IMG/VR virus record: IMGVR_UViG_3300045988_103144
From: a virus
Direction: 5' to 3' (one strand)
Length of the DNA: 46,193 nucleotides
Part shown: positions 9,122-46,193 of the stretch, one piece after another
Layout of the letters: each line of letters begins with the position of its first letter
Numbering within the stretch: position 1 is the stretch's first letter
Program-made: the position numbers and the translations under genes
The notes under the pieces: generated by a model
Seen by the model: only the letters and a program-made list of their open reading frames with translations
What the model was told of the DNA's origin: nothing
Databases searched by the model: none

Positions 9122-10027
9122 TTATAAATCGTCGAACAAATTACCCTGTAATTTATGCTCACAATACCAATGTTTAAGGCCCTGCTTAGAAGTCCACCAA
9201 TTAAAAACCTCCTCGTCTGTTAGGTCGGTATAACGATTCACATAGCCGTTTTCTCTTAATCGGTGTATGGTACGCAATATTAAAGCCTTGTAGCGTGGAT
9301 ATGCCCCCCCTTGTTTTATAATTTCTTTTTGGCTTGCCATCGGGCAAAACAAACACCCGATACGTTGCCAACCTTTATCGTATAGCTCGCAGTGTTCTAC
9401 TTTAACGACTTCATTAAGAAAGTACCAAACATCTTCTTTCGTCCAATCTATGATAGGGTTTATCACGATTTTGTCTTTGCCCTTGACACACTGCACGCCC
9501 TCAACTTCTTGGCTTCGTGTAAATTGGTCTAACTGCTCAAAGCTGCCACTAAATCGGTCTGTCTTCTTCGCTCTGATAATCTCGGCTTCGTTTCTGTGGC
9601 TTCGCTGTACGGATTCCTCACGCCTTACACCTGTAAGTGTAACTGTCCCGGCTCCTTTGGTTTCTTTCAGTACGGCGCAACAAAAGCGCATTAAGCGAGT
9701 TGGCAAAGCCTTACTTTTGATGCAAAGTTGGGCAAAGGTTAGTTTAGGTCTATCTATTGCAACATCAGGATATTTGTTACGGATAAACATAACTAACTCT
9801 GGTGGATCTAAAGTCGTGAGGCTATAATGAGCGTCAAACTTTACACCTGCTAATACTGCCACGTGGTAAAGGCTCTGGCTATCTTTGCCCCCACTAAATG
9901 CCAAATAAAACCCCTTATCTGAATAACGCAAAGCCAACTTTTCCGACTTCTGTAATAACTCGATACTGTGTTGCAACTTTTTGTCAAAGTTAAGGGGTTT
10001 TCTCTTTTGATACGCTGTACTGTTCAT
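9122..10027 (-). CDS. PAPS-reductase-family PP-loop ATPase
   Basis: 301 aa with the PP-loop SGGKDS (LAFSGGKDSQS) and C-terminal cysteines (IGCLFCP). Confidence 0.75.
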   Translation of the reverse strand: MNSTAYQKRKPLNFDKKLQHSIELLQKSEKLALRYSDKGFYLAFSGGKDSQSLYHVAVLAGVKFDAHYSLTTLDPPELVMFIRNKYPDVAIDRPKLTFAQLCIKSKALPTRLMRFCCAVLKETKGAGTVTLTGVRREESVQRSHRNEAEIIRAKKTDRFSGSFEQLDQFTRSQEVEGVQCVKGKDKIVINPIIDWTKEDVWYFLNEVVKVEHCELYDKGWQRIGCLFCPMASQKEIIKQGGAYPRYKALILRTIHRLRENGYVNRYTDLTDEEVFNWWTSKQGLKHWYCEHKLQGNLFDDL

Positions 10028-10179: not shown

Positions 10180-10203
10180 AATTGGCGGTATTGGTGAATA
10201 ATG

Positions 10204-10221
10204 GCACGGCTTTCGCCGTGC
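10204..10221 (-). promoter_or_regulatory. GC-rich hairpin with a GAAA loop downstream of VR2 (candidate DGR target-recognition element)
   Basis: Plus strand reads GCACGGC-TTTC-GCCGTGC. A near-identical element lies at 22108..22127. Confidence 0.6.
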
Positions 10222-10250
10222 TTAAAGATTAAAAACTAAAATATTAAGGG

Positions 10251-10961
10251 CTAAAAAATAAATGCTGACACTGCCCTAACTCTGCCCGTGTTGCTGGCCT
10301 TAGTGGTCCAATTGCTCGAAGTACCGTCGTCGAGGTACAGATACCACGCGTTGGTCGCACTGCTCTCGGTAGAAGTCCAATACCAACGGTCTTGCAGTTT
10401 ATCGCCCTTGGCAAACTCCAAAGCTGCATTGATAGTCTTTTTGTTGATAAAGATACGGTACAACTCGCCTAAAGATGGTATGTACCAATCATCAGCTAAC
10501 TTTATCTTTGGATTCAGGATGCTACGCAAATGGTTGGTGTTTCTCGCTCCGTCCATGTCTGCTACTGCATCGTCGTACTTGTCGATATAATAATCTTGGT
10601 CGGCTTTTAGATCGCTATTGCTCTTTGTGGTTAGTGCGATACCATCGCCGTTAGCCTCATCGTGCAAAGCTATCTTAATGCCAAAGCTACCCATCTTCAG
10701 ACCGATAGCCACTACCTCGCTATCCATGTTGTCGTCTTTGGTGTACTCCAGTTCAAACAAAGTTGCTTTGCCGTCGGCGTGTACCAAATAGACGCCGTCC
10801 TCTATGCCGGATTTTGGTAACTGCGCTTGTACTGGCTTTTCGTCCTTACCCATCACAAAGGTATTGGCTTTCTCCGCATCTTCCACGTTGCCACACCATT
10901 GTAATAACTCGTATCTGAATTGCTGCACGTCTGATAGTGCCTTACTTGTCTGTATCTCCAT
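10251..10961 (-). CDS. DGR target protein 2 (DUF1566/lectin-fold C-terminus carrying VR2)
   Basis: 236 aa. WYIPSLGELYRIF...WYWTSTESSATNAWYLYLDDGTSSNWTTKASNTGRVRAVSAFIF. The last 36 codons are collinear with the TR. Confidence 0.85.
   Translation of the reverse strand: MEIQTSKALSDVQQFRYELLQWCGNVEDAEKANTFVMGKDEKPVQAQLPKSGIEDGVYLVHADGKATLFELEYTKDDNMDSEVVAIGLKMGSFGIKIALHDEANGDGIALTTKSNSDLKADQDYYIDKYDDAVADMDGARNTNHLRSILNPKIKLADDWYIPSLGELYRIFINKKTINAALEFAKGDKLQDRWYWTSTESSATNAWYLYLDDGTSSNWTTKASNTGRVRAVSAFIF
10263..10370 (-). repeat. DGR variable repeat VR2
   Basis: 108 nt, collinear with TR 21493..21600. By hand alignment there are 10 mismatches, all at TR adenines (T on the + strand). Confidence 0.85.
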
Positions 10962-17327: not shown

Positions 17328-17549
17328 GCAAATTTTCAGCAAATAGTTTTTAGGTGTTCGTAATTAATTATAAATCAATAAGATATGAATAATATGGGAT
17401 TATTAAGTGGTGTCACGGCTCTAGTAGCCAAACACCTGATAATCAGCCCTAAAATGGGGGCTTTTTTCTGCGCCAAACCCCTAAAAATGGGCGAAATATG
17501 GTGCATTTTGGTAGGTTCGGGCGCAAAAATCAGCAAATTTTCAGCAAAT
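17328..17549. repeat. 17-bp direct repeats GCAAATTTTCAGCAAAT bracketing about 190 bp upstream of int; candidate attP arm sites
   Basis: Exact copies at 17328-17344 and 17533-17549. CCCTAAAA(A)TGGG occurs at 17447 and 17479. Confidence 0.4.
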
Positions 17550-17564: not shown

Positions 17565-18803
17565 ATGGCAAAATCTCGTTTTCGCTTAGATGTTCGTAGG
17601 GCATTAAAAGATGGTACGTACCCGATTCAGATTATAGTAGGGCACGGCACTAACATCTATCTTGGTACTGGTGTCTATGCCTCGGTTGGTGAGTGGGATG
17701 CCCGGACACAACAATACATTGGCAAAGGGGCACGGCGTATTAACGCCGCTCTTGTCTCTATGCTCGCTATGGTTACTAACCGCATTATGGAATTAAAGGA
17801 GACTGGGCAATGGCCGAAATTATCACGTAGGCAAATCAAACAAATGCTTACCGACTTGGAATTGGAAAAGCCCACCATTGATGTACCTACGCTTAGTGAC
17901 GTATTTTCGTCAATGTGTGAGGGGCGCGCCGATCGCACTAAGGGGATAACCAAAAGTGCATCGTTAAAGATACAGGCATTTGGCTATGATCCGGCAAAGC
18001 TGCACTTTGAGCAAATAACTACTACGTGGTTAGATGATTTCTACGCGTCGATGTCTGGGCTATCAATTAATACGAAAGCGGCATACATGAAAGCTGTTAA
18101 GCGCGCGTTTAACTGGGCAATAGACCACAATATTACAACTAATGATCCTTTCAGACACTACCGCATAAAGGTAGAAGAAACTCGTATGAGGGATTTGCCG
18201 ATAGAGAAAATGAGGCAATTGTTAGACTTACCACTACAGGGGCTTTATCCTGAATATCGTGATTTGTTCATGCTTACCTTTTACCTGATAGGCATTAATA
18301 CGGTTGATCTTGCCGACTGCACGTTAGATAGCATCGTTAATGGTCGCTTGGAATACCGCCGACACAAAACAAATAAGCTATATAGCATTAAGATTGAGCC
18401 GGAAGCAATGGAGATAATAAACCGCTATAAGGGCAAAAAGCACCTCATACGTTGCTTTGATAGGTACAAAGACTATAAAGCCTTACAGGGTAGCGTTAAT
18501 AACGCTCTATCTAAAATAGGCCCTGCCCGGTTGGATGATAACGGAAATTTCGTTTTTACTCGAAACCACCGAAAAGAAATGCAACCTTTGGAAAAGGGGC
18601 TATCTTTGTACTGGGCGCGTTACTCCTGGGCGACGTATGCCGCCGACTTGGATATACCTAAAGACACTATCAGTGAGGCTTTGGGACACTCCCACGGCGC
18701 AAAGGTTACAGGTGTGTATATAAAGTACAATAGGGATAAAGTGGATGCCGCAAACCGCAAAGTTATAGACTACGTATTGGGTAAAGCAAACCGCCCGGGC
18801 TAA
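17565..18803 (+). CDS. int: Tyrosine site-specific integrase
   Basis: 412 aa with a Bacteroides-type N-terminal arm-binding region. C-terminal catalytic region: RHKT...YWARYSWAT...ALGHSHGAKVTGVYIKY. Confidence 0.85.
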   Translation: MAKSRFRLDVRRALKDGTYPIQIIVGHGTNIYLGTGVYASVGEWDARTQQYIGKGARRINAALVSMLAMVTNRIMELKETGQWPKLSRRQIKQMLTDLELEKPTIDVPTLSDVFSSMCEGRADRTKGITKSASLKIQAFGYDPAKLHFEQITTTWLDDFYASMSGLSINTKAAYMKAVKRAFNWAIDHNITTNDPFRHYRIKVEETRMRDLPIEKMRQLLDLPLQGLYPEYRDLFMLTFYLIGINTVDLADCTLDSIVNGRLEYRRHKTNKLYSIKIEPEAMEIINRYKGKKHLIRCFDRYKDYKALQGSVNNALSKIGPARLDDNGNFVFTRNHRKEMQPLEKGLSLYWARYSWATYAADLDIPKDTISEALGHSHGAKVTGVYIKYNRDKVDAANRKVIDYVLGKANRPG

Positions 18804-18846: not shown

Positions 18847-19380
18847 TTATTTTTTTCTCCGTAGATATAAGAATATAACATAAATAATCGCCGCTACGCA
18901 ACATAAAAAGCCAATATGGTAAATTGTACGCTGATACCATTTTAAGGCTTTCACGCCCTGTTTCTGTGGCTCTCTGCTGGCTTGTTTGTTGTCTCGGCTC
19001 TGCACTGCATTTGCTTGCAGCTTATGGGTGTTGGTGCTGTCCTTGCTCTGGGTGACGTTCTCAGCTTTCTTCTGGGCGGCTTTCTTGCCGTGTTGGTATG
19101 ACTTCACGCCATCGGCTTTCAGGTTGCCCAAAGTGTCAATCGTGAGTGTACCGCCGTTATTGGCAAACTCGATGTACCCCCAATCGCTAAAATACGTTAG
19201 CGTGGTCCGGCTGTCGGTTTGGATAGTACCTACGTGGATACTATCGGTTGCTAACTTGGTGGTGTCGGTTTCCTCTCTTGTAGTTGTGGATGATTCCGAT
19301 ACCGCCTTTTTTGTCGTCTTGCAGCCTATCAGCCCAAACAAGGCTAACAGGCACATACAGATAGTTATAAACTTCTTCAT
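18847..19380 (-). CDS. Unimolecular-spanin-like lipoprotein (N-terminal lipobox, C-terminal TM)
   Basis: 177 aa counted from the ATG at 19380. MKKFITICMCLLALFGLIGC is a lipobox. The C-terminal TM is IGFLCCVAAIIYVIFLYL followed by RRKK. It lies directly after the endolysin gene. Confidence 0.55.
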   Translation of the reverse strand: MKKFITICMCLLALFGLIGCKTTKKAVSESSTTTREETDTTKLATDSIHVGTIQTDSRTTLTYFSDWGYIEFANNGGTLTIDTLGNLKADGVKSYQHGKKAAQKKAENVTQSKDSTNTHKLQANAVQSRDNKQASREPQKQGVKALKWYQRTIYHIGFLCCVAAIIYVIFLYLRRKK

Positions 19381-19387
19381 CGGCTCA

Positions 19388-19825
19388 TTATTTAATGTCT
19401 TTGTACTCCTTAGTAGCGTCAAAACTTGGGCACGCCTTGGCCGCAAAGTCTCGGTGTCCGTGGATTGTAGCGTTAGGGTAACGGTGCTTTAACTCTGTAA
19501 GCAACTTTACCAAAGCCGCCTTTTGCTCTGGTGTTCGGGTGTCCTTTGGTGTCTTCCCATCGGATGCCAAACCGCCCACATACACCACACCAATACTATT
19601 AGCGTTGTGCTTCAGGCAATGTGCCCCCACCTCGCTTTCTGGTCGGCCTGGTTCTACCGTTCCGTCCAAATCTACTACATGATGGTAGCCAATTCCATTC
19701 CAACCTTTAGCCTTGTGCCATCTGTCAATGTCTGCCGCCTTAAAGTTCTTACCCTCGGCGGTTGCCGTACAATGTACGATGATCTCATTAATCTTTCTCA
19801 TATTAATAACCATTTTGTGGGTCAC
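19388..19825 (-). CDS. N-acetylmuramoyl-L-alanine amidase (Amidase_2/PGRP) endolysin
   Basis: 145 aa with IIVHCTAT, GYHHVV and HGHRDFAAKACPSFD zinc-ligand motifs. Confidence 0.85.
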   Translation of the reverse strand: MTHKMVINMRKINEIIVHCTATAEGKNFKAADIDRWHKAKGWNGIGYHHVVDLDGTVEPGRPESEVGAHCLKHNANSIGVVYVGGLASDGKTPKDTRTPEQKAALVKLLTELKHRYPNATIHGHRDFAAKACPSFDATKEYKDIK

Positions 19826-20159
19826 GTTTAGTGCAACCCTTAATTACACACTTATAGTGTTGCAGTTCTAATTCTAACTGCGCCTTATCCTTGTTGAGCT
19901 GCAAAATATCTAAATTCTGCTTTCTCACCAAATCGGTTTGCTCTGCAAATCTCTGCTCTTTATCTTTGAGTTGGGTTTGCAAAAAGTCCATAGCCTCACG
20001 TAAAACGTTAAATTCCACGTTGTCGGCCTCGGCTTCCTCCTTTCGGCGGTTGGTCTTTCGATTCATTACATATTTAATCATTTCCCAACCGCCCAAAGCG
20101 GTAATAACCGATACTACAATTTCAATTACCTGCATGATGCTCGATGCTGTTAAGTTCAT
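19803..20159 (-). CDS. Holin-like protein (one TM plus coiled coil)
   Basis: 118 aa. N-terminal TM is VIEIVVSVITALGGW followed by a charged coiled coil. It overlaps the endolysin start. Confidence 0.35.
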   Translation of the reverse strand: MNLTASSIMQVIEIVVSVITALGGWEMIKYVMNRKTNRRKEEAEADNVEFNVLREAMDFLQTQLKDKEQRFAEQTDLVRKQNLDILQLNKDKAQLELELQHYKCVIKGCTKRDPQNGY

Positions 20160-20266
20160 AAATCACTTTTCCGTCTCGCTGTTCTGTTATTACTACATAT
20201 TTTGTAAGTAGCAATCTAAGCAAACCCATATCCAACCTATCGGATGATAGGGTAATGAGTGCCTTA

Positions 20267-21451
20267 TCAGTAGTCGCCATTTCTAATTCTCTGCATAGTT
20301 TGATACCTCAATTTATGTTTGTTCTTAATTACCAATACTTCGTAGTGCCCTTTGATGTACACATATTCTTTATATATGCGCGGCTCGATCATGTTAAGCA
20401 CTTTACGACGCATAGCATATTCATTGGTATGCCTTAACAAACCTAAATATGAGTTGATACTACATACCGCGTGTAATACCTGACGCTCGTTGTTAGCCTT
20501 GTTTAGTCGCCTGACCGCGGCAATAAAGTTTGTTATTGTTCTGTTACAGGTATAGACACGTCCGGGCTTTACTATTGACCCGGTAAACTCCACGCCTTTG
20601 CTGTAGTGTTGCAAATAAAACTTTTTCTCATTCAGTCGTAAACCTAACTTGGCTAATAGTTCACGTATCTTAGGCACCAACGCCAATAGCTTTTCTTTGT
20701 CCTTATGGATGCAATAGAAGTCGTCTACATATCTGCCATGATGTTTTATACCCTCATTCTCAATATACCAATCAAGCGTATTAAGTAAGAAATTGGCAAA
20801 TATCTGGGCAAACAGGTTGCCGATGGCTACGCCCTTACCCTCACCATTTGTAAATAGTGATTTGTTCTTATCCAACTTCTCCCAATAGCTTAAAGGGCTG
20901 TGCCGTTCACAATTCCTTTCGGGGCTGTGTAAAATAACGACACGGCAAAGGTAGCGCAAATCGTCTATGTCTTCGCCCTTGTAGTACCTGACTATAAAGC
21001 GATCTACCATTTCAGCCAATAACTTTTTGTCGATGCTCATAAAGAAACCTTTTAAGTCAAGTTTCATAATGTAGCAATCTTTCGTGTAATTATTGCTGCA
21101 CTGCCTTATATCTTCTTTCAGCATATTAATACCATAAAGCTGCCCTTTGCCTTTCCTACAATTAAATGTACGCTCGCTAAAGATTTCTTCAAATAGCGGC
21201 GTTAGGCGCAAAGCTATGTAATGGTGTACGATTCTATCTTCAAAGGATGCTGCAAATACCTCTCTGTATCTTGGGCGTGTTACGACAAAGCAAATAGACT
21301 TACCCGGTTGGTATGTTCGGTTATTGATTCTATCACGCAAAGCAATCAAACGGCTTTCGTAGTCCATTTCGTAAACAACCGCGCTCGCTGTCCGTCTCTT
21401 GCTATGGCGACAATCAAAGTAAGCATCTAAAAGCCATTCTGTCGTTACCAT
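20267..21451 (-). CDS. DGR reverse transcriptase
   Basis: 394 aa with the RYVDDFYC catalytic box and the DGR-type GVAIGNLFAQIFANFLLN motif. Its start lies 41 nt downstream of the TR. Confidence 0.85.
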   Translation of the reverse strand: MVTTEWLLDAYFDCRHSKRRTASAVVYEMDYESRLIALRDRINNRTYQPGKSICFVVTRPRYREVFAASFEDRIVHHYIALRLTPLFEEIFSERTFNCRKGKGQLYGINMLKEDIRQCSNNYTKDCYIMKLDLKGFFMSIDKKLLAEMVDRFIVRYYKGEDIDDLRYLCRVVILHSPERNCERHSPLSYWEKLDKNKSLFTNGEGKGVAIGNLFAQIFANFLLNTLDWYIENEGIKHHGRYVDDFYCIHKDKEKLLALVPKIRELLAKLGLRLNEKKFYLQHYSKGVEFTGSIVKPGRVYTCNRTITNFIAAVRRLNKANNERQVLHAVCSINSYLGLLRHTNEYAMRRKVLNMIEPRIYKEYVYIKGHYEVLVIKNKHKLRYQTMQRIRNGDY

Positions 21452-21492
21452 TGTATATTATCATTTGTCACGTTTCTGCTTTCTGTAAATAG

Positions 21493-21600
21493 TGCTGACA
21501 CTGCCCTAACTCTGTTCGTGTTGCTGGCCTTAGTGTTCCAATTGTTCGTATTACCGTCGTTGAGGTTCAGATTCCACGCGTTGGTCGCACTGTTCTCGGT
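21493..21600 (-). ncRNA. DGR template repeat (TR)
   Basis: 108 nt homologous to the 3' ends of two ORFs. Sense strand reads ACCGAGAACAGT...GTGTCAGCA. It is adenine-rich, with 11 AAC/AAT codons in the VR frame. Confidence 0.85.
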
Positions 21601-21663
21601 TGGCCGCAATCTGTGGTCTATTATCTTGTTCTTAGCCGTAAATGACGGCATAAACCCCATTTA

Positions 21664-22080
21664 TTACGGAAAACTGCGCTCTCGGTCTGTCGTAACATTC
21701 CGATTCTGGCTACAAAGCGTATTAACTACTTTGTTTTTCCACGCTGACGATTGTTTACCTATTTCGTCCATTAACTCGATGATATTTGCAAACTTTCCTC
21801 TGCCTTTTATCCATTCCCTTTCTCCGGCAATTCTCATTAGCGTTTTCATTGTCTCAAACTCTGCCTGAAACTCGGTTAGGTGCTTTACTGTCTCGGCTTT
21901 GTCCTTATTGATGTACGACGCCGCTATTTCCTGCATCAGATTAACGCCAATTTCTTGCAGCTTTGCCCCGATGGTGAATTTGTAGGCACGTGGGAAATTT
22001 GGCACTATATCCAAAATGATGTCTAACAACTTTCTTGCATCTAAATAAATCTTTGTACTTGAAACTAATTTTACCGCCAT
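21664..22080 (-). CDS. avd: Accessory variability determinant (Avd, four-helix-bundle protein)
   Basis: 138 aa, helical and basic (…DIVPNFPRAYKFTIGAKLQEIGVNLMQEI…), located between target and TR. Confidence 0.7.
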   Translation of the reverse strand: MAVKLVSSTKIYLDARKLLDIILDIVPNFPRAYKFTIGAKLQEIGVNLMQEIAASYINKDKAETVKHLTEFQAEFETMKTLMRIAGEREWIKGRGKFANIIELMDEIGKQSSAWKNKVVNTLCSQNRNVTTDRERSFP

Positions 22081-22107
22081 TGCTTGTTTATTAAATTGCC
22101 TTATAAT

Positions 22108-22127
22108 GGTACGGCTTTCGCCGTACC
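22108..22127 (-). promoter_or_regulatory. GC-rich hairpin with a GAAA loop downstream of VR1
   Basis: Plus strand reads GGTACGGC-TTTC-GCCGTACC. It is the paralogue of 10204..10221 with a compensatory C:G to T:A change. Confidence 0.6.
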
Positions 22128-22155
22128 TAAAGGTTAAAGACTAAGAAATTAAGAA

Positions 22156-22935
22156 TTAAATAATAAATGCTGACACTGCCCTAACTCTGCCCGTGTTGCT
22201 GGCCTTAGTGCCCCAATAGCTCGTACCTTCGTTGAGGCTCAGATACCACGCGTAGGCCGCACTGCTCTCGGTAGAAGTCCAATACCAATCCTCGACTAAC
22301 TGGGTGGCTCCGGCAATCAGGGACAAAGCATAATTGATTTTTGTCATATTGGCATAAATCATCATCATTTCGCCCAACGATGGCAACCACCATTTACCTG
22401 CTGTCAATCCCTCACCTTTAGCATTTACCCGACTATACAGATTGCAGTAGCCCGGTGCATACTGCGCCGTATTGGTTATTGCATCGGCTCTACTTGCCTT
22501 GATTGTAGCCGCCGTGTTCGTCTTACCGTTCCAATCGTTCATCGCCGTAACACGATCTCCTGTTGTCGTACCGCCCCCGCTAATAGCTGCGCTACTCCAC
22601 GTTAAAGGTGAACTTGATTCAGTAGGGGCCACAACTAAGATTTTGCCGCCCTCTACAATTACTACACCCTCGGCAATTTCGCCGCTGTTTTGGTAGGATG
22701 GCCATTTATAAGGCTTAACCATAAGTGGGAAATTGTCGCTATTACGATGAAACATGATAAAGATACCGTCGTTTATGCTGTCAAGGTTCATACCTGCCAT
22801 CAAAGCGGCTTTGAGGTTCGCTAATGAAATAAGCGTAACCTTTCCGTTTGTGTCCGTTACCGGAAATTTCTGGTCGTTGTTGATGGTCGTTACTGTTGCC
22901 TGGCCACTCAACTTTTTTGTTTTCTTTATTGCCAT
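22156..22935 (-). CDS. DGR target protein 1 (DUF1566/lectin-fold C-terminus carrying VR1); probable receptor-binding tail protein
   Basis: 259 aa. WWLPSLGEMMMIY...WYWTSTESSAAYAWYLSLNEGTSYWGTKASNTGRVRAVSAFII. It is the last gene of the tail-fibre cluster. Confidence 0.85.
   Translation of the reverse strand: MAIKKTKKLSGQATVTTINNDQKFPVTDTNGKVTLISLANLKAALMAGMNLDSINDGIFIMFHRNSDNFPLMVKPYKWPSYQNSGEIAEGVVIVEGGKILVVAPTESSSPLTWSSAAISGGGTTTGDRVTAMNDWNGKTNTAATIKASRADAITNTAQYAPGYCNLYSRVNAKGEGLTAGKWWLPSLGEMMMIYANMTKINYALSLIAGATQLVEDWYWTSTESSAAYAWYLSLNEGTSYWGTKASNTGRVRAVSAFII
22168..22272 (-). repeat. DGR variable repeat VR1 (105 nt, one codon shorter than the TR)
   Basis: Hand alignment to the TR gives 11 adenine-site mismatches, one non-adenine mismatch (GAC to GAA) and loss of one AAT codon. 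Confidence 0.8.
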
Positions 22936-22956
22936 AATTACTACTATTTAAATATT

Positions 22957-23709
22957 CTACCTAATCGCCCAAATCGTTTGTCCGTCTTGCCCTATGCCGA
23001 CAACGTCAAATAGCCCATATCCCAATCCAATTTCTTTAGACTGCGCTAGATCTTTTGAGCCGTGTACCCATATTTTAACTTTACTGTTCTGCGGTGCAAC
23101 AGAAGCATCAGGTGAGGATCGAGTACCGAATGGTGCATAAATCTTAATATTCATACATTCGCCGTTTGGTAACTCCGGTAAAATAATCGGCTTCCACTCT
23201 CCGAATACAACAGCTCCGTCAATATTAGTAATGCTTGACGATATATGCAATCGAATGGATTTTGCCGTAATGTCTCCTGCTACAGTAACATTCTCAAATA
23301 TTCCCGATTTGCAAGTTACATTACCGTCTTTAGCTTGAAAGATGATGTTGCCTTCAGCGTCTTTCATGTCGATGGTCTCCACACCCAAATTTTTGACTAA
23401 AGCATACTGCGTTAACAGTATCTTCGTAGCTACTATTTCCACAGGGTCGGCTAACTTCCAAAGTCCGCTATTGGTGTCGGTTGCACTTCCTGGGTAATTG
23501 CTTGCGGTCTTGGTGTGTGATTTGATGCAAGAATAATAGTATCCACCATACAAAACTACGTCTTTGTAATCCTCGCCGTTTGCTCCGGATTGGAACACAT
23601 AGCCTACGGCGCAATCACTCCACGCTTGTGGGCCTCGTAGTGCCGGGCCCCTGTCGCCTTTACTACCCTTACGTATAAACTTAACTATTCTTGTTATTGA
23701 CACACTCAT
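22957..23709 (-). CDS. Tail fibre/baseplate-associated structural protein (by position)
   Basis: 250-aa co-oriented ORF between the tail genes and DGR target 1. Confidence 0.45.
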   Translation of the reverse strand: MSVSITRIVKFIRKGSKGDRGPALRGPQAWSDCAVGYVFQSGANGEDYKDVVLYGGYYYSCIKSHTKTASNYPGSATDTNSGLWKLADPVEIVATKILLTQYALVKNLGVETIDMKDAEGNIIFQAKDGNVTCKSGIFENVTVAGDITAKSIRLHISSSITNIDGAVVFGEWKPIILPELPNGECMNIKIYAPFGTRSSPDASVAPQNSKVKIWVHGSKDLAQSKEIGLGYGLFDVVGIGQDGQTIWAIR

Positions 23710-23713
23710 AGGC

Positions 23714-24766
23714 TTAACTTTCTGATGTTATAGTTACACTAATATCTCCACCACTTTGCGAACACATAGCACGTGTTACGGAATAGCTTGCAACCGCCGT
23801 TTTTCGCTCGCTGTCACTATTCAGGTAAACACCCGCTGCATCTTTCACAACAAAGAAAAACTTAGCGTCTTTGATTGCTTGCGTGTTAGTTCCACGCTTG
23901 ACGATCCACGGCGTGTAGGTTACTTTGCCGTTGCCGCTCTCATCTTCGCTTATCGCCTCGTCTTCCGGTGTCGGGCGTGCGTCGATGTCGTAGGGGTCGG
24001 ATGCGTCCATAACGCCCTGTATGTCTTTACCAATTTCAACGCCACTACGATTAACAGTCACTCGATATTCGCCGTATGTGTCTATACTGCTGCCTGACAC
24101 TGTAAGCGTCTGAGCGGTCTGTCCGTTGATAACCTCCCAACCACTGGCTCCCATCTTCTCCCACACATAGGTTAAATCTTTGGTGATTTCCCCGTAGTTC
24201 TGGTATGCCATTGCCTTTAAAACGCAACTGCCGCCCTTGTCGGTAATAACAAAGCCCTTGTTATCTCCTGCCATGATTGCAACACGATAACTTGTACCTG
24301 TTGTTTTCTGCACTGGGATTGTATAGGTAGCTTGGATATTATCGCTTTGTGTGCCATAACTGATAGCTGCCACCATCTTGATAGTTACCGGGGCAAAACC
24401 TGCGATTTCTACCAAATTCTTAACAATCTGCAAACCATAGTAGATGTTGTCACCGCTTGGCGCAAACTTCTTAAAGTAGCCTGCAAAAATGCCGCTTGAC
24501 GTATCGCCGTTAAACTCGATTTTCGTACCATTGAAAAAGTACTGCATACTATCAGGCGTTGCCACTCCCTCGGCTACTCGGCTACTCATACAAACAAAGT
24601 TAAGTTTCGGCTTTGTCTGTTCAAAGTTAGGGAACACCTTAGTAACGTCGGATTCTGTGCCGTCCCATTCTTGGTAGATGTCACCATCTGGGCACATGAT
24701 TAATGCCATATAAGTCCCTGCCTTGGCAATAAACTTAATCGTTCGGGTTGTACTCGCTTTGCTCAT
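23714..24766 (-). CDS. Tail fibre/baseplate-associated structural protein (by position)
   Basis: 350-aa ORF, predicted beta-rich. Confidence 0.45.
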   Translation of the reverse strand: MSKASTTRTIKFIAKAGTYMALIMCPDGDIYQEWDGTESDVTKVFPNFEQTKPKLNFVCMSSRVAEGVATPDSMQYFFNGTKIEFNGDTSSGIFAGYFKKFAPSGDNIYYGLQIVKNLVEIAGFAPVTIKMVAAISYGTQSDNIQATYTIPVQKTTGTSYRVAIMAGDNKGFVITDKGGSCVLKAMAYQNYGEITKDLTYVWEKMGASGWEVINGQTAQTLTVSGSSIDTYGEYRVTVNRSGVEIGKDIQGVMDASDPYDIDARPTPEDEAISEDESGNGKVTYTPWIVKRGTNTQAIKDAKFFFVVKDAAGVYLNSDSERKTAVASYSVTRAMCSQSGGDISVTITSES

Positions 24767-30742: not shown

Positions 30743-33700
30743 TTACACATTATAGTTCTTGCCGCTCTTCTTCGCCACTCGCTTAACATCTGTAATCATG
30801 TCAAGTAACTTGCGTGCGTTGGCATTCATATTGATGTTTACCTCCGTGGCTGTCGGCTCAATGTCGTTTGTTATGTTCTGCATCGTCACCGGCTGTAATC
30901 TCCGCTCCGTAAAGGTAGGCGGCTGAAACTTGCCGTCGATCATGCCGAACAATCGGGCTTGCTGAAACTTGTTTAGTATCATCTCGCCGCTGTTCACTCG
31001 GGCAAACTTCTTGTCGCCCGATGTAGAAGTACCGCCGATAACACCACCAGTGGCAAATCCCGAAACTGCTGCGAGTGCCGCAATAACTGCCGCCACACCT
31101 GCCGCAATCGCTACCAGGTTCAAAGGAAATGGCATTTTTGCACCGCTCGCCGTGGCATTTGCAACCGCTTCACCGCTCTTGGCTGCCGTGTTGGCTGTAG
31201 CTGCTGCCGCTTCTCCTGCCGTTGCTGCTGCATCGGTAGTGGATGCCGCCGCATGTGCTGAGGTTGCCGCCGTGAGCATGTCGAACAATGCCACAATACC
31301 CTGTATGCCCTCGGCAATGGAAATAAAGCCATTAATAAGCCCCGTTACCTGCTGCCAGGCATCACCGTTGCCCTCCAGTGCATCACTTATGCCCTGAATG
31401 CCGTTGCCTACGCCCTGGATGCTTCCCCAACCGCTTTTGATGTCGCCAAACACCTTGTCAAAACCCTTGCTGTCAAGTTCAATCTTTATAGGCTTCAATC
31501 CGATTTCTGCGAGTTGTCGGTTTATCTCCTCAATCTCTTTCAGTGCCTCGTCCTTGCCAATAATTCCTATCTCGTAGTCGGTTTGTATGCGGCTTGCCTT
31601 ATTCTGGGCGTTGCTGTGGCTCTGTCTCTTGTCGGCTGCACTTCCCTGCACGATGTATGCCGGTTCCGTCTCTGCCTTGATAGATACCTTACCCTTTGTA
31701 GTTTCGTCTATCTGCCGTTGTATGTCGGCTATCTTGGCATCGGCTTTCACCCTTGCATCTATTGTGGTGGCTTCCTCAAACTCCTGCTGTGCGTCGTGCA
31801 ACTGTTCTTGCAGTTCCTCGATGTAGGTTTTGAAATGTACCTCTATCGACTTAACGCCCAACTTTTCAAGCTGCTTGTTAATGTCGGCTATCTGCCTTTC
31901 GGCATCTTCCTTGCCGATAAGTCCTATTTCAAAGTCCTGCTTTATCCGGTCAATGTTGTGTTGTGCATTGGTTCGACTCTGTCGTTTGTCGGCATCGCTT
32001 CCCTGCACAATGTATGTTGGTTCTGTCTCTGCCCCGATAGATACCTTACCCTTTGTAGCTTCGTCTATCTGCCGTTGTATGTCGGCTACCTTTGCATCGG
32101 CTTTTACCCTTGCATCTACGGTCATGGCGTTGCCCATTTCCTTTTGTGCCGCCGCCAACTGCGCCTGTAGTTCCTCTACGTGGGTTTTCGGTTCATCTTT
32201 CTTGTTGTCCTTGATGGTCGTTTTCTTCGGGGTATCCTTGGCGTGTGGGGTAGTCGGTGTACCAGCCGTAATAAAACTACGTGCCGTGTTCAGCCGTGTG
32301 GTGAGCTGCTTTTGTGTGTCACCAATCTGTCGGTTTACGGATTCAATTTCTTTATCTACACTATTAATCTGTGTGTTTCCGGAAACATTCGTACCGTTGT
32401 ACCTCTCCGCTCCAACCTTGGTAAATCTCCACTGCCCATCGCGGCCAACCTTGCCGTAACGATCGCTACGCCAACTTTCGGGCACGATGTCACCCTCTTT
32501 GGCGTGTCTGCCTCCCTGCTTGGCATCGTCGGCAATAGTCTTGGTGATTTTCTGCTTTTTATCAAGCAACTCAATTTGACGCTGATACAAAGCCGTGAGT
32601 TTTGCCGCATACGCTGCCGCCAATGCCCTTTGCTTGAATGCCTCCACCACTGCATCGGTTCTGCGGTTAAATATGTTCTCGGCTTCCGTCACGTTACCGA
32701 TTTTCAGGCGCAATTCATTGAAAGCACTTTGGTTATCCTTTATCCACGCCATTTTCTGCTGCTCTGTGGATAATGCGCGCCAACCTGCTTTCAATTTCTC
32801 ATATTTCGCCATGAGGTCGGCGTATGTGTTCTTTAGCGCACTGTCGTAGGCGGTTTTTATGTCGTCGGCTGCATTACCAAAGCCTTTCATGCTCTCGGCT
32901 GTGTCCTCTGCTTGGGTCTGCGCATCTGCCGACTTTGAGGTAAATGCCGCTATAACCTCAGTAAGCGCAACGATAGCCACGCCAACGCCTGTAGATATTA
33001 ACAAACCCTGTATGGCAAGTTTCAGCGTTGTAGCACTCACCGCCGCACCGCGAAATGAAGCTGTCATTACTTGCACCAAAGCATTCATACGCACCGATGT
33101 AGCGTTCCATACCAGTGAAGCGGCATTCATTGCCATTGTGCGAACCTTGACAATAGCCTGTATCTTTGCAAGATTCTTCAAACCGCTAACCATTGCAGAA
33201 ACGGCAATCACGGTATTGCCAATCTGTGCCGTAATGTTGAGTACCGGCATAATGCCACCCATCGTTGAGGCTATAGCGTCGCCCACTTCTGCAAACTTGT
33301 TTTTGAGTATCTGCAAACTTGCCGCTCCGCTGCTGCTCATAATGGAAAAAGCATCGTCTATAGTTCCGGCACTGCCTTTCATCGCTTCCACGTTTTCATT
33401 AAACTTGGCTGCGAGTTGTCCGGTGAGTGGCCCCAATGCTCTCAGGCTCTCGGCACTGCCGAATAACTTCCCGTAGATTTCCTGCTCCAGCATACCGCTC
33501 TTGCTGGCGTATGCCTTAACGTTCTTATCTAAGTCGGTGAGGAAATTACGCATACCTCCTGCCGCCTTGATAGCTGCTGCATCAAACTCGATGCCCATTT
33601 GCTGTGCCATCTTGCTTGCCTCGCTCGACGGCTTCACCAAAGCGGTAAAGATAGCGGCTAACTGGGTGGAAACTTCTGCCGTGTTACCGCTCACGCCCGT

Positions 33701-34375
33701 AAGCGTTGCAAAGGTCGCCATAAGTTCGTCAATGCTTACACCCAAAGTGGCGGCATTGCTCGTAACTTTCGGTAGGGCTTGTGCAAGCTGCTCGAACGAT
33801 GTTACACCATTCTTGGCCGTGAGCTGTATTTTATCCTGCACATCGCCTGCCTTGTCCCACGACAAACCATAATTCTTGATAATGGTAGATGTAACCTTTA
33901 CAGTCTCGCCCAGATCAGCAATACCGCCCACGGATGCCTTAGCCGATTTCTGCAAAAAGGCTATCCAGTTGTCTTCAGGCACGCCATTGCTGATAACCTG
34001 GTATAATCCGTTAGCGAGTTCGTCACGTACTACCGGAATGCTTTTTGATAACTCGGCTACCTGTCCTTTGAGTCTGGCAAAGTCCTCGCCGCTCTTTCCT
34101 GCCATCGTGTTAGCGGCGTTCATGGCTGCGCTGAAACTGCGGCTTTCCTCGGTAACGCTGTTGAGTGCTCCCGAAATCTGCGAAATGGCATTGGTAACGT
34201 TATTAGCCGCCATTACCGCCTGGTTGAAATTAACCAAAGCCGCGTTTAGTTTTTGGCTGCTCGTCTTGGCAGAATCAAGCACACGGCGCAACTCTTCCGC
34301 TGTAGAAGTAGCTGTAACCAACTGCTCTTTGCCGTCAACAACCAGTTTAACGTTAAATTTTATTTCTTTTGCCAT
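30743..34375 (-). CDS. Tail tape measure protein
   Basis: 1210 aa. It is helical and Ala-rich, with hydrophobic segments and an internal tandem repeat, and sits after the frameshifted chaperones. Confidence 0.85.
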   Translation of the reverse strand: MAKEIKFNVKLVVDGKEQLVTATSTAEELRRVLDSAKTSSQKLNAALVNFNQAVMAANNVTNAISQISGALNSVTEESRSFSAAMNAANTMAGKSGEDFARLKGQVAELSKSIPVVRDELANGLYQVISNGVPEDNWIAFLQKSAKASVGGIADLGETVKVTSTIIKNYGLSWDKAGDVQDKIQLTAKNGVTSFEQLAQALPKVTSNAATLGVSIDELMATFATLTGVSGNTAEVSTQLAAIFTALVKPSSEASKMAQQMGIEFDAAAIKAAGGMRNFLTDLDKNVKAYASKSGMLEQEIYGKLFGSAESLRALGPLTGQLAAKFNENVEAMKGSAGTIDDAFSIMSSSGAASLQILKNKFAEVGDAIASTMGGIMPVLNITAQIGNTVIAVSAMVSGLKNLAKIQAIVKVRTMAMNAASLVWNATSVRMNALVQVMTASFRGAAVSATTLKLAIQGLLISTGVGVAIVALTEVIAAFTSKSADAQTQAEDTAESMKGFGNAADDIKTAYDSALKNTYADLMAKYEKLKAGWRALSTEQQKMAWIKDNQSAFNELRLKIGNVTEAENIFNRRTDAVVEAFKQRALAAAYAAKLTALYQRQIELLDKKQKITKTIADDAKQGGRHAKEGDIVPESWRSDRYGKVGRDGQWRFTKVGAERYNGTNVSGNTQINSVDKEIESVNRQIGDTQKQLTTRLNTARSFITAGTPTTPHAKDTPKKTTIKDNKKDEPKTHVEELQAQLAAAQKEMGNAMTVDARVKADAKVADIQRQIDEATKGKVSIGAETEPTYIVQGSDADKRQSRTNAQHNIDRIKQDFEIGLIGKEDAERQIADINKQLEKLGVKSIEVHFKTYIEELQEQLHDAQQEFEEATTIDARVKADAKIADIQRQIDETTKGKVSIKAETEPAYIVQGSAADKRQSHSNAQNKASRIQTDYEIGIIGKDEALKEIEEINRQLAEIGLKPIKIELDSKGFDKVFGDIKSGWGSIQGVGNGIQGISDALEGNGDAWQQVTGLINGFISIAEGIQGIVALFDMLTAATSAHAAASTTDAAATAGEAAAATANTAAKSGEAVANATASGAKMPFPLNLVAIAAGVAAVIAALAAVSGFATGGVIGGTSTSGDKKFARVNSGEMILNKFQQARLFGMIDGKFQPPTFTERRLQPVTMQNITNDIEPTATEVNINMNANARKLLDMITDVKRVAKKSGKNYNV
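31466..32179 (-). repeat. Tandem 357-bp (119-aa) duplication inside the tape measure gene
   Basis: Peptide units VEELQAQL...ARVKADAKVADIQRQIDEATKGKVSIGAETEPTYIVQGS... and IEELQEQL...ARVKADAKIADIQRQIDETTKGKVSIKAETEPAYIVQGS.... The matching nucleotide string tagataccttaccctttgtag starts at 31681 and 32038. Confidence 0.8.
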
Positions 34376-42807: not shown

Positions 42808-43023
42808 AACTAAATGACTTTGACAAAAACGAAAAAACCGCGCTACGTGCTGTCAGGTCTCATTTAGCAAGAACCCCGGGGCATTTCTGCTACCCGACAC
42901 GGCGCGGCTATCTCTTTATATAGAAATATCCTATTATACTTACTATGGCATGGATACAAAAATAGCCGCTACGTTACGGTGAACGGCGGCAACATCTGTA
43001 CCGCTAAATGAAATTTGACACTG

Positions 43024-45659: not shown

Positions 45660-46166
45660 ATGATACGTTACAAGAAGTACAAAAGCAATCAGACGGGCGT
45701 AACCAAAAACAAGTGGTACGGCCGTGCCGTTACCGAACTTATGGAGTTTGAGGAATTCGTAAAGCACATGGCAAACCATCACTGCGTGTTCGGTGAGTCC
45801 ACAATCCGCGGCGTGCTGATCGAGATGCAGATTTGTATGCGTGAGCTGCTGCTGGAAGGCAAGGCGGTACGCCTCGATGACCTCGGCATCTTCCGCATTG
45901 GCCTGGAAACCTCCGCGGCTACCACCGCCAAGGAGTTTACCGCCGACAACATCAAAGCTGTGCGCCTTAACCTCTATCTCGGCAAACGCTTCCGTGCTGC
46001 GGACCTCTACAAAGATGCCAAGTTCCGTGAGGCTGGCAAGTATGATGGCGGCGGCGACGATGGCGGCGAGACTGCCGGTACCCACGATGAGGGTAGCAAC
46101 ACCAGTGGTGGCAATATGCCGGACGGCGGCTCCACCGATGATTCAGCCGATGTTGGGCTAGAGTAA
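45660..46166 (+). CDS. HU-family (Bacteroides HU_HIG-type) DNA-binding protein with a Gly/Asp-rich tail
   Basis: 168 aa counted from the ATG at 45660. MIRYKKYKSNQ...WYGRAV...EFVKHMANH...IRGVLIEMQICMRELLLEGKAVRLDDLGIFRIGL. Confidence 0.6.
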   Translation: MIRYKKYKSNQTGVTKNKWYGRAVTELMEFEEFVKHMANHHCVFGESTIRGVLIEMQICMRELLLEGKAVRLDDLGIFRIGLETSAATTAKEFTADNIKAVRLNLYLGKRFRAADLYKDAKFREAGKYDGGGDDGGETAGTHDEGSNTSGGNMPDGGSTDDSADVGLE

Positions 46167-46193
46167 TGGCTTCTGTAATTAGTGGCGAAATAT
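46117..46193. repeat. Terminal direct repeat, copy 2 (identical to 1..77)
   Basis: Exact 77-nt identity with the window start. Confidence 0.9.

Follow-up and report, generated by a model that had tools for sequence, protein, structure and literature searches.

We analysed the 46,193-nucleotide (nt) virus record IMGVR_UViG_3300045988_103144 (hereafter the window, meaning this whole stretch at its full length). A preliminary description, made from the letters of the window, had placed a diversity-generating retroelement (DGR) on its minus strand at 20267-22935, with four parts in the order target gene, avd, template repeat (TR) and reverse transcriptase (RT). Each of these parts was found at the coordinates claimed. 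While the cassette itself is complete within that interval, the element is larger, because a second target gene sits 11 kb away, and it extends to this remote target at 10204-10961. Its open reading frames (ORFs, lengths in amino acids, aa), variable repeats (VR1 and VR2) and predicted RNA and DNA structures are as follows.

22156..22935, minus strand: target gene 1, a 259-aa ORF adjoining the cassette, with a DUF1566/Lcl_C-type C-terminal domain
22168..22272, minus strand: VR1, 105 nt, codons 222-256 of 259
22108..22127, minus strand: hairpin 3' of VR1 (GGTACGGC-GAAA-GCCGTACC), 8 bp, 40 nt past the end of the TR/VR homology
21664..22080, minus strand: avd (accessory variability determinant), a 138-aa ORF
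21688..21697, minus strand: small stem-loop UGU-UACG-ACA in the 3' end of avd
21664..21673, minus strand: 5' strand of a long-range duplex (TTTTCCGTAA), across the avd stop codon
21612..21659, minus strand: structured RNA domain between avd and the TR, with an outer stem and an inner hairpin GCCGU-CAUUU-ACGGC
21493..21600, minus strand: TR, 108 nt, of which 39 are A; 11 codons read AAC/AAT in the VR frame
21480..21488, minus strand: 3' strand of the long-range duplex (TTACAGAAA), 9 nt, starting 4 nt after the TR
20267..21451, minus strand: DGR reverse transcriptase, a 394-aa ORF with GRYVDDF and IGNLFAQIFAN
10251..10961, minus strand: target gene 2 (remote), a 236-aa ORF in the replication module
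10263..10370, minus strand: VR2, 108 nt, codons 198-233 of 236
10204..10221, minus strand: hairpin 3' of VR2 (GCACGGC-GAAA-GCCGTGC), 7 bp

The details of the preliminary description largely stood. Both motifs named for the 394-aa RT ORF, the RYVDDF box and IGNLFAQIFAN, were present, and the exact boundaries of the TR gave the same count of 11 AAC/AAT codons. VR1 had been taken as the last 35 codons of the 259-aa ORF; its coordinates were right, but three more codons (F-I-I) follow codon 256. An independent repeat search recovered the TR and the two VRs as one three-copy family (10263-10370, 21493-21600 and 22168-22275), and a second family of 121 nt consisted of the 3' part of the VRs with their downstream flank (10198-10318 and 22103-22223, 88% identical). 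In the ORF list, a 71-aa pseudo-ORF runs over the TR. When the TR was aligned with each VR and the mismatches were classed by TR base, all 10 mismatches of VR2 were located at TR adenines (10/10; hypergeometric P = 1.6e-5), as were 11 of the 12 mismatches of VR1, in line with the adenine bias noticed earlier. The sole non-adenine mismatch of VR1 was a C->A change (GAC->GAA) at TR position 45, and VR1 additionally showed a 3-nt deletion inside GGTAATACG relative to the TR.

The variation among relatives was examined in a population sample of about 60 related metagenomic genomes, for which a search of IMG/VR with the RT gave about 38 loci of 95-100% RT identity and a search with target 2 gave 31 loci carrying VR2. 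The TR was nearly invariant, with 6 variants 1-3 bases apart in 37 related genomes, and the VR1 and VR2 sequences differed in nearly every genome. Among 29 distinct full-length VR1 and 29 distinct VR2 sequences, 37.8% and 38.2%, respectively, of the cells at TR adenines were unlike the majority TR, versus 0.30% and 0.46% of the cells at other bases, and part of this small non-adenine residue was a G/T polymorphism of the TR itself. As the preliminary description had anticipated, variation was thus confined to TR-adenine positions at both VRs. The substitutions in the related genomes comprised 488 A->G, 273 A->T and 120 A->C. Within the final 20 nt of the repeat, the adenines (TR positions 90, 94, 99, 105 and 108) almost never varied, which would be expected if this segment is uncopied or serves homing alone. 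An AAG codon (TR positions 70-71) was also invariant in the VRs; mutation there could create a stop codon, and its invariance is likely due to selection. At the protein level, entropy was 0.95-1.12 bits per site in the VRs versus 0.08-0.29 elsewhere (109 and 97 full-length homologues). In the wider clade, with RT identities of 63-89% and including Bacteroides phages Bacuni_F1 and F2, most TR/VR pairs had 10-20 adenine mismatches versus 0-2 others, and a few longer alignments running into the flanks counted up to 7 non-adenine mismatches. Judged from these comparisons, the variation between genomes has the pattern predicted by mutagenic retrohoming and not that of ordinary divergence.

A different explanation would be that the three repeats are ordinary paralogous C-terminal domains and that the RT is part of an unrelated system (retron, group II intron or defence RT), the adenine pattern being a coincidence or a result of selection on Asn codons. 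Targets 1 and 2 are indeed true paralogues in their C-terminal 80 residues, but the contrast of 38% versus 0.3-0.5% over 58 distinct VRs is beyond ordinary divergence. Moreover, the TR copy is non-coding, and in the upstream part of its pseudo-ORF, RNA covariation is found in place of protein conservation. The RT bears on the same question. It matched Pfam RVT_1 (E = 3e-20) and phrog_1423 (E = 2.7e-81), and its best match in the PDB was 8ub7_A (E = 2.2e-26), followed by a group II intron RT (E = 1.7e-7). In a tblastn search, the aligned 146-residue stretch of 8ub7_A was 100% identical to brt of Bordetella phage BPP-1. Residues R63 and I210 of the window's RT align with R74 and I181 of the BPP-1 enzyme (bRT), which have been shown to promote adenine mutagenesis (PMC7826257); I210 is the first residue of the IGNLFAQ motif at 210, and YVDD is found at 241. 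The RT also weakly matched models of other RT classes, as an unrelated RT might, but these scores were far below the curated cut-offs, and we rejected a group II intron RT (NCBIfam group_II_RT_mat, 82.8 versus 300 bits), a retron RT (NCBIfam Retron St85, 40.6 versus 235) and a defence RT (Drt2 and Drt4, about 42 versus 390-450; PADLOC DRT models, at most 72 bits). The nearest solved relative of the RT is a genuine DGR enzyme, and an Avd gene is a neighbour of the RT gene. The comparison of RT classes proposed earlier therefore supports a placement of the enzyme with DGR RTs, and we give paralogous domains beside an unrelated RT practically no credence.

The 138-aa ORF, described earlier as Avd-like, scored 86.5 bits with Pfam PF22296 (bAvd), above the cut-off of 40, and matched phrog_3206, "Avd protein of DGR" (E = 1e-16). 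NCBIfam DivGenRetAVD gave 38.7 bits (E = 1e-9), which is below its cut-off of 80, and a single-sequence search of the PDB with Avd returned nothing significant.

On the target side, the 3' 20 nt of the TR (21493-21512) are identical in the TR, VR1 and VR2, and the TR and the VRs diverge directly after this segment. Because of this identity, and because its adenines almost never vary, the segment behaves like an initiation of mutagenic homing (IMH) site; a BPP-1-style IMH/IMH* difference was not seen within the 20 nt. Both VRs are followed, about 40 nt further 3', by a GC-rich hairpin that has GAAA as its loop; DNA folding gave -10 kcal/mol (z = -4.9) at VR1 and -9.7 kcal/mol (z = -4.6) at VR2. 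The two hairpins differ by a compensatory T:A to C:G change, and a corresponding hairpin is absent 3' of the TR. When the best hairpin with a 4-nt loop 3' of the VR was taken from each of 32 divergent relatives, it occurred at the same place, and 17 different stem sequences were represented; for 30 of these relatives the stem was GC-rich and 7-11 bp long, the loop usually GAAA, GGTA or GTTA, and the position mostly 26-44 nt past the VR. Hairpins of DGR targets have been described as GC-rich 7-10 bp stems with 4-nt GRNA loops, located 4-34 bp from the VR, and homing in BPP-1 depends on the hairpin downstream of the VR (Guo et al. 2011, PMC3240598). In their predicted form, the hairpins of the window match these elements.

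On the template side, the evidence for RNA structure came from 35 diverse relatives. In the structured domain at 21612..21659, 97.1% of 588 cells were paired, with 17 pairs in the whole tested structure. Compensatory changes were found in 11 of these 17 pairs, cells with a double change numbered 93 versus 25 +/- 5 in shuffled alignments, and slid controls were 26-42% paired. Of the 3 pairs in the small stem-loop in avd (UGU-UACG-ACA), 2 show compensatory changes among the same relatives. For the long-range duplex TTTTCCGTAA/TTACAGAAA, native partners paired with a mean of -10.4 kcal/mol versus -3.4 +/- 2.0 kcal/mol for shuffled ones, and divergent relatives hold the duplex with other sequences (e.g. 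CUUCUUCC/GGAAGAAG and UUAUCUGU/GCAGAUAA). In the BPP-1 ribonucleoprotein, sequences on either side of the TR form a duplex, and such a duplex has been predicted for 207 of 278 Avd-type DGRs (preprint 10.1101/2023.10.23.563531). The spacer from the TR to the RT start is only about 41 nt and poorly conserved. An Rfam scan of the cassette found no family at the gathering score. When the whole avd-TR-spacer RNA of the window was folded alone, it showed no excess stability (z = 0.01); the argument for the structures lies in covariation and not in single-sequence energy. Pairs of the TR with the RT coding region proposed by RNAalifold were invariant and hence uninformative. A pairing of the conserved GUUACG in avd with CGUGAC in the spacer was also considered and rejected, as it was not kept in relatives on reading the alignment; the local mini-hairpin was preferred.

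Both target proteins matched phrog_4245 (target 1, E = 6e-12), and most of their close homologues carry a precomputed match to PF07603. At E <= 1e-5 we found 3328 homologues of target 1 and 1560 of target 2. The two targets are 61% identical over their C-terminal 82 aa, and no significant similarity was detected between them before this region. The C-terminal 100 aa of a target-family profile matched PDB entry 8q4e (HbP1; E = 9.6e-5), the profile also gave a weak match to 4eps, and single-sequence searches of the PDB with both targets gave nothing significant. From the phrog_4245 and Lcl_C matches and the shared C-terminus, the targets would belong to the DUF1566 class of DGR targets, "category d" or CLec2 in a survey of such proteins (PMC5758913).

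Taking these results together, the window, the genome of a temperate gut siphovirus of the Segatella copri group (for the host assignment, see below), very probably carries an active DGR in which one template serves two targets. As far as sequences of relatives can tell, the DGR is demonstrably active at the level of the lineage. Several points weigh against this conclusion. The activity of this particular genome rests on its relatives, and the population comparison is one of genomes from different samples and not of reads from a single sample. DGR RTs carry the signature [I/V/L]GxxxSQ in place of QGxxxSP; the RT of the window (I-G-x-x-x-A-Q) agrees with it in I, G and Q and has Ala for Ser. 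Ala was found at this position in 85 related loci, and more distant relatives have Ser (IGNLTSQ or IGNLFSQ). The hairpins past the VRs may also be transcription terminators, a role that is compatible with one in homing. The preliminary description had seen a DUF1566 or C-type-lectin-like domain in the target; Pfam Lcl_C (PF07603) did match target 1 (E = 1.5e-7) and target 2 (E = 1e-7), but at 32.2 and 32.7 bits, respectively, just under the gathering score of 34.9. AlphaFold2 models of the targets had pLDDT (predicted local distance difference test) values of 33.7 and 29.8, calculated from 54 and 41 homologues that were mostly >80% identical. Because of the sub-gathering scores and these unusable models, the C-type-lectin fold of the targets is a prediction from sequence. 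Finally, the C->A change and the loss of one codon mean that A-to-N changes alone do not turn the present TR into VR1, and homing into VR1 may last have taken place long ago.

The two irregularities of VR1 could also mean that the DGR is decaying, in the sense that, after earlier diversification of the targets in the lineage, it no longer homes here, at least into VR1, and that the differences between TR and VR are frozen history. A C.A mismatch in the long-range duplex points in the same direction; it occurs in the window and its closest relatives, and other members of the clade have C-G there. However, the window has intact copies of the RT, avd, the TR, the invariant 3' segment and the two hairpins, all of them matching those of relatives in which the VRs are all different, and VR2 is a perfect A-only derivative of the TR. 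Non-adenine changes occur at 0.3-0.5% across the population anyway, and the single C->A of VR1 fits this low background. The codon deletion, too, proved to be a recurrent event at both targets, as detailed in the following paragraph. We therefore consider decay very unlikely and retain the reading of an active DGR.

The deletion that turns GGTAATACG into GGTACG in VR1 recurs in VR1 of three related loci (L021, L024 and L027) and in VR2 of another (L096), each time in a different adenine-site background and with a full-length TR. The lost codon is TR codon 17 (AAT), removed in frame. At the protein level, DG-T-xx-W in place of DG-x-T-xx-W was found in 10 of 120 homologues of target 2 and in at least 12 of 120 homologues of target 1; roughly 8-13% of the homologues at both targets show this one-codon loss (e.g. 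proteins P0017 and P0137). Two further loci, L030 and L031, have a 3-nt insertion in VR1. Since the deletion recurs in unrelated VR backgrounds whose TRs are full length, it points to mechanism and not to decay, and the simplest reading would be recurrent slippage of the RT between the two UA dinucleotides of GGUAAUACG during cDNA (complementary DNA) synthesis.

A further reading, which we would sooner doubt than rely on at present, is a distinct organisation of the RNA in this clade of DGRs from Bacteroidota phages. Unlike in BPP-1, a covarying domain of about 48 nt would lie 5' of the TR, and domain and TR would both be held inside the covarying long-range duplex with almost no 3' spacer. 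In that case, the RNA that binds protein would be upstream of the template, perhaps together with the site of priming, an arrangement nearer to retron msr-msd than to the TR-Sp of BPP-1, and it would be accompanied by the repeated in-frame codon deletion at GGUAAUACG. If this proposal is true, the deletion adds length variation to the adenine substitutions.

A mechanism consistent with the active DGR can be proposed as follows. The transcript would run from the 3' end of avd through the structured domain and the 108-nt TR into a short 3' tail. This RNA would fold so that the long-range duplex, for which covariation was observed, brackets the domain and the TR. The RT, together with Avd, would then copy the TR into cDNA and misincorporate opposite template adenines; the copying step follows BPP-1 biochemistry, and its adenine-specific outcome is what we observed. 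In either target gene, the cDNA would take the place of the homologous stretch of 105-108 nt close to the 3' end, with homing directed by the invariant 20-nt 3' segment and the GAAA-loop hairpin. These elements and their conservation were observed, and their role is taken from BPP-1 genetics. With about 32 mutable adenines, mostly in the 11 AAY codons, some 10^18-10^19 sequences per target would be possible, and the varied residues would fall in a ligand-binding domain of the DUF1566 type (C-type-lectin-like).

Target 1 is located after the tape measure gene (30743-34375) and tail protein genes and before genes for a small protein and an amidase (19388-19825), so that the cassette lies at the end of the tail cluster, as stated earlier, and ahead of the lysis genes. 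Following the tail genes as it does, target 1 most likely sets receptor specificity. Target 2 has different neighbours, namely DNA polymerase A, a PAPS (3'-phosphoadenosine-5'-phosphosulfate) reductase and a VapE primase, in the replication module. One may ask whether target 2 is a non-virion protein without a function in receptor binding, which is produced along with the replication genes, acts inside or on the infected cell, e.g. against a variable host factor, and makes the DGR a two-purpose element. Its location between the DNA polymerase A and the PAPS reductase/primase genes is conserved in Bacuni_F1 (46.6% aa identity), its N-terminal 150 aa lack significant similarity to target 1, and it is diversified as heavily as target 1. 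On the other hand, positive evidence for such a role was not obtained, PADLOC gave no match, structural or accessory adhesin genes of phages are sometimes found away from the tail module, and the authors of the Bacuni study see both targets as adhesin-like (PMC8143477). On balance, we think such a role of target 2, inside or on the infected cell, rather improbable. The PAPS-reductase-domain protein that adjoins target 2 is encoded at 9122-10027 on the minus strand (E = 1.5e-17). A cytosine methyltransferase is found at this place in Bacuni_F1, and the PAPS-reductase gene may be part of a DNA-modification module.

The phage itself appears to be complete. An exact 77-nt terminal direct repeat (1-77 = 46117-46193) is probably the k-mer overlap of a circular assembly, which would correspond to a complete genome of 46,116 bp. 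Beyond the amidase gene, an integrase is encoded on the plus strand (17565-18803), and the homology of the window to several longer relatives ends at about 17360-17390, beside this gene. In one of them, L033, the sequence past the end of homology is 99.3% identical over 826 nt to the chromosome of Segatella copri HDD05. Phage and bacterial site have in common a 13-nt core, TTAATAATCCCAT (17394-17406), which lies beside a TetR-family gene of HDD05 and is a candidate core of the phage attachment site (attP). Scaffolds of Prevotella sp. CAG:732 also carry the RT at 97-98% identity. Based on the chromosomal flank, the shared core and these scaffolds, the host belongs to the S. copri group; the preliminary description's link to Bacteroides is thus replaced by Segatella (Prevotella) copri as the host of the lineage. 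In loci L014, L019, L022 and L081, homology to the window is lost at 18609, inside the integrase gene, which suggests that they carry a different integration module.

The closest isolates were the Bacteroides uniformis phages Bacuni_F1, F2 and F4 (MT635598, MT806186 and MT806185; PMC8143477), with RT identities of 71.7% (F2) and 67.4% aa. None of 50,697 phage records matched 19000-24000 in a megablast search; the relatedness to known phages is visible at the protein level alone. The question of a known lineage, raised at the outset with regard to Bacteroides DGR phages, can thus be answered: the phage is a relative of the published Bacuni phages. Given protein identities of 47-72% and the lack of a nucleotide match, its lineage is related to but distinct from them, and the two fall outside a common genus.

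For the Bacuni DGR, Hedzet, Rupnik & Accetto (2021, PMC8143477) described two targets, one adjacent and one remote, DUF1566 motifs and VRs of 35 residues, and they reported differences in host range that go along with changes in the VRs. As in the window, tail genes are followed by a DUF1566 target, bAvd, the TR (annotated as a small ORF in Bacuni), the RT, a small protein, an amidase and an opposite-strand integrase. The remote DUF1566 target likewise stands directly behind DNA polymerase A, and adenine-specific changes are seen in VRs of 35 codons close to the 3' ends of the targets. The hairpin after the cassette VR is identical to that of the window (GGTACGGC-GAAA-GCCGTACC), and Bacuni also has the long-range duplex and the structured domain ahead of the TR, each with compensatory changes. 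In contrast, the RTs share 67-72% identity, the genome is 40.4 kb in Bacuni versus 46.1 kb here, and the gene beside the remote target is a PAPS reductase in the window and a cytosine methyltransferase in Bacuni. The hosts also differ, B. uniformis for Bacuni and S. copri for the window, and integrated prophages are found among the relatives of the window, whereas the Bacuni phages yielded no lysogens (PMC8143477). Overall, the gene content and repeats indicate that the DGR of the window is of the known, Bacuni-like type with two DUF1566 targets, in a different host and phage lineage.

BPP-1, whose mtd-avd-TR-brt cassette is the prototype, shares with the window the order target, avd, TR and RT and the adenine-specific mutagenesis. 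Its bRT is the closest solved homologue of the RT, with R74, I181 and the catalytic Y-x-DD conserved, and both systems have a protein of the pentameric-type bAvd family, a GC-rich 7-8 bp hairpin with a GRNA loop past the VR and a duplex flanking the TR. The differences lie in the targets and in the RNA. BPP-1 has one target, Mtd, whereas the window has two of the DUF1566 (CLec2) type; the hairpin is about 40 nt from the VR in the window and 4 nt in BPP-1; and the window does not have the GC-rich (GC)14 tract. The TR and RT are separated by about 41 poorly conserved nt in the window and by a structured spacer of 140 nt in BPP-1, where the structured RNA is downstream, with an Avd-binding stem-loop just after the TR, and not 5' of the TR as in the window. 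The DGR of Legionella pneumophila with its target LdtA, and other CLec2 targets, resemble the window in that the VR overlaps a C-terminal motif of the DUF1566/Lcl_C type. LdtA is a chromosomal surface lipoprotein, whereas the targets of the window are phage-encoded, are short at 236-259 aa and, on reading alone, carry no signal or lipobox.

To our knowledge, few characterised phages are known for S. copri, a major human gut species, and the present lineage adds a well-documented DGR phage. In a literature search we found no paper on this lineage or on a DGR phage of S. copri, which is not proof that none exists. Because thousands of target variants are present in public metagenomes, the lineage is common and offers a natural data set on how a DGR explores sequences and how selection acts on them. 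The covarying RNA elements and the target hairpins provide handles for reconstituting a DGR of the Bacteroidota type, and the target in the replication module raises the question of what the phage diversifies there. The current understanding of DGRs is unchanged by these findings; the recurrent codon deletion, the structured RNA domain 5' of the TR and the replication-module target go beyond the textbook picture.

Other observations concern regions away from the DGR. The 1210-aa tape-measure ORF contains a 300-nt direct repeat (31484-31783 and 31841-32140, 73% identity, 357-nt spacing), an internal duplication. In the bacterial flank of L033, beyond the prophage, a 976-aa protein (L033 16595-19525) looked primase/helicase-like on reading alone and may belong to another mobile element by the integration site. 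c4-type antisense RNAs are a class associated with phage immunity regions, and a c4-2 RNA (Rfam RF02944) was detected at 42834-42909 on the minus strand of the window with 55 bits versus a gathering score of 41 (E = 1.7e-9).

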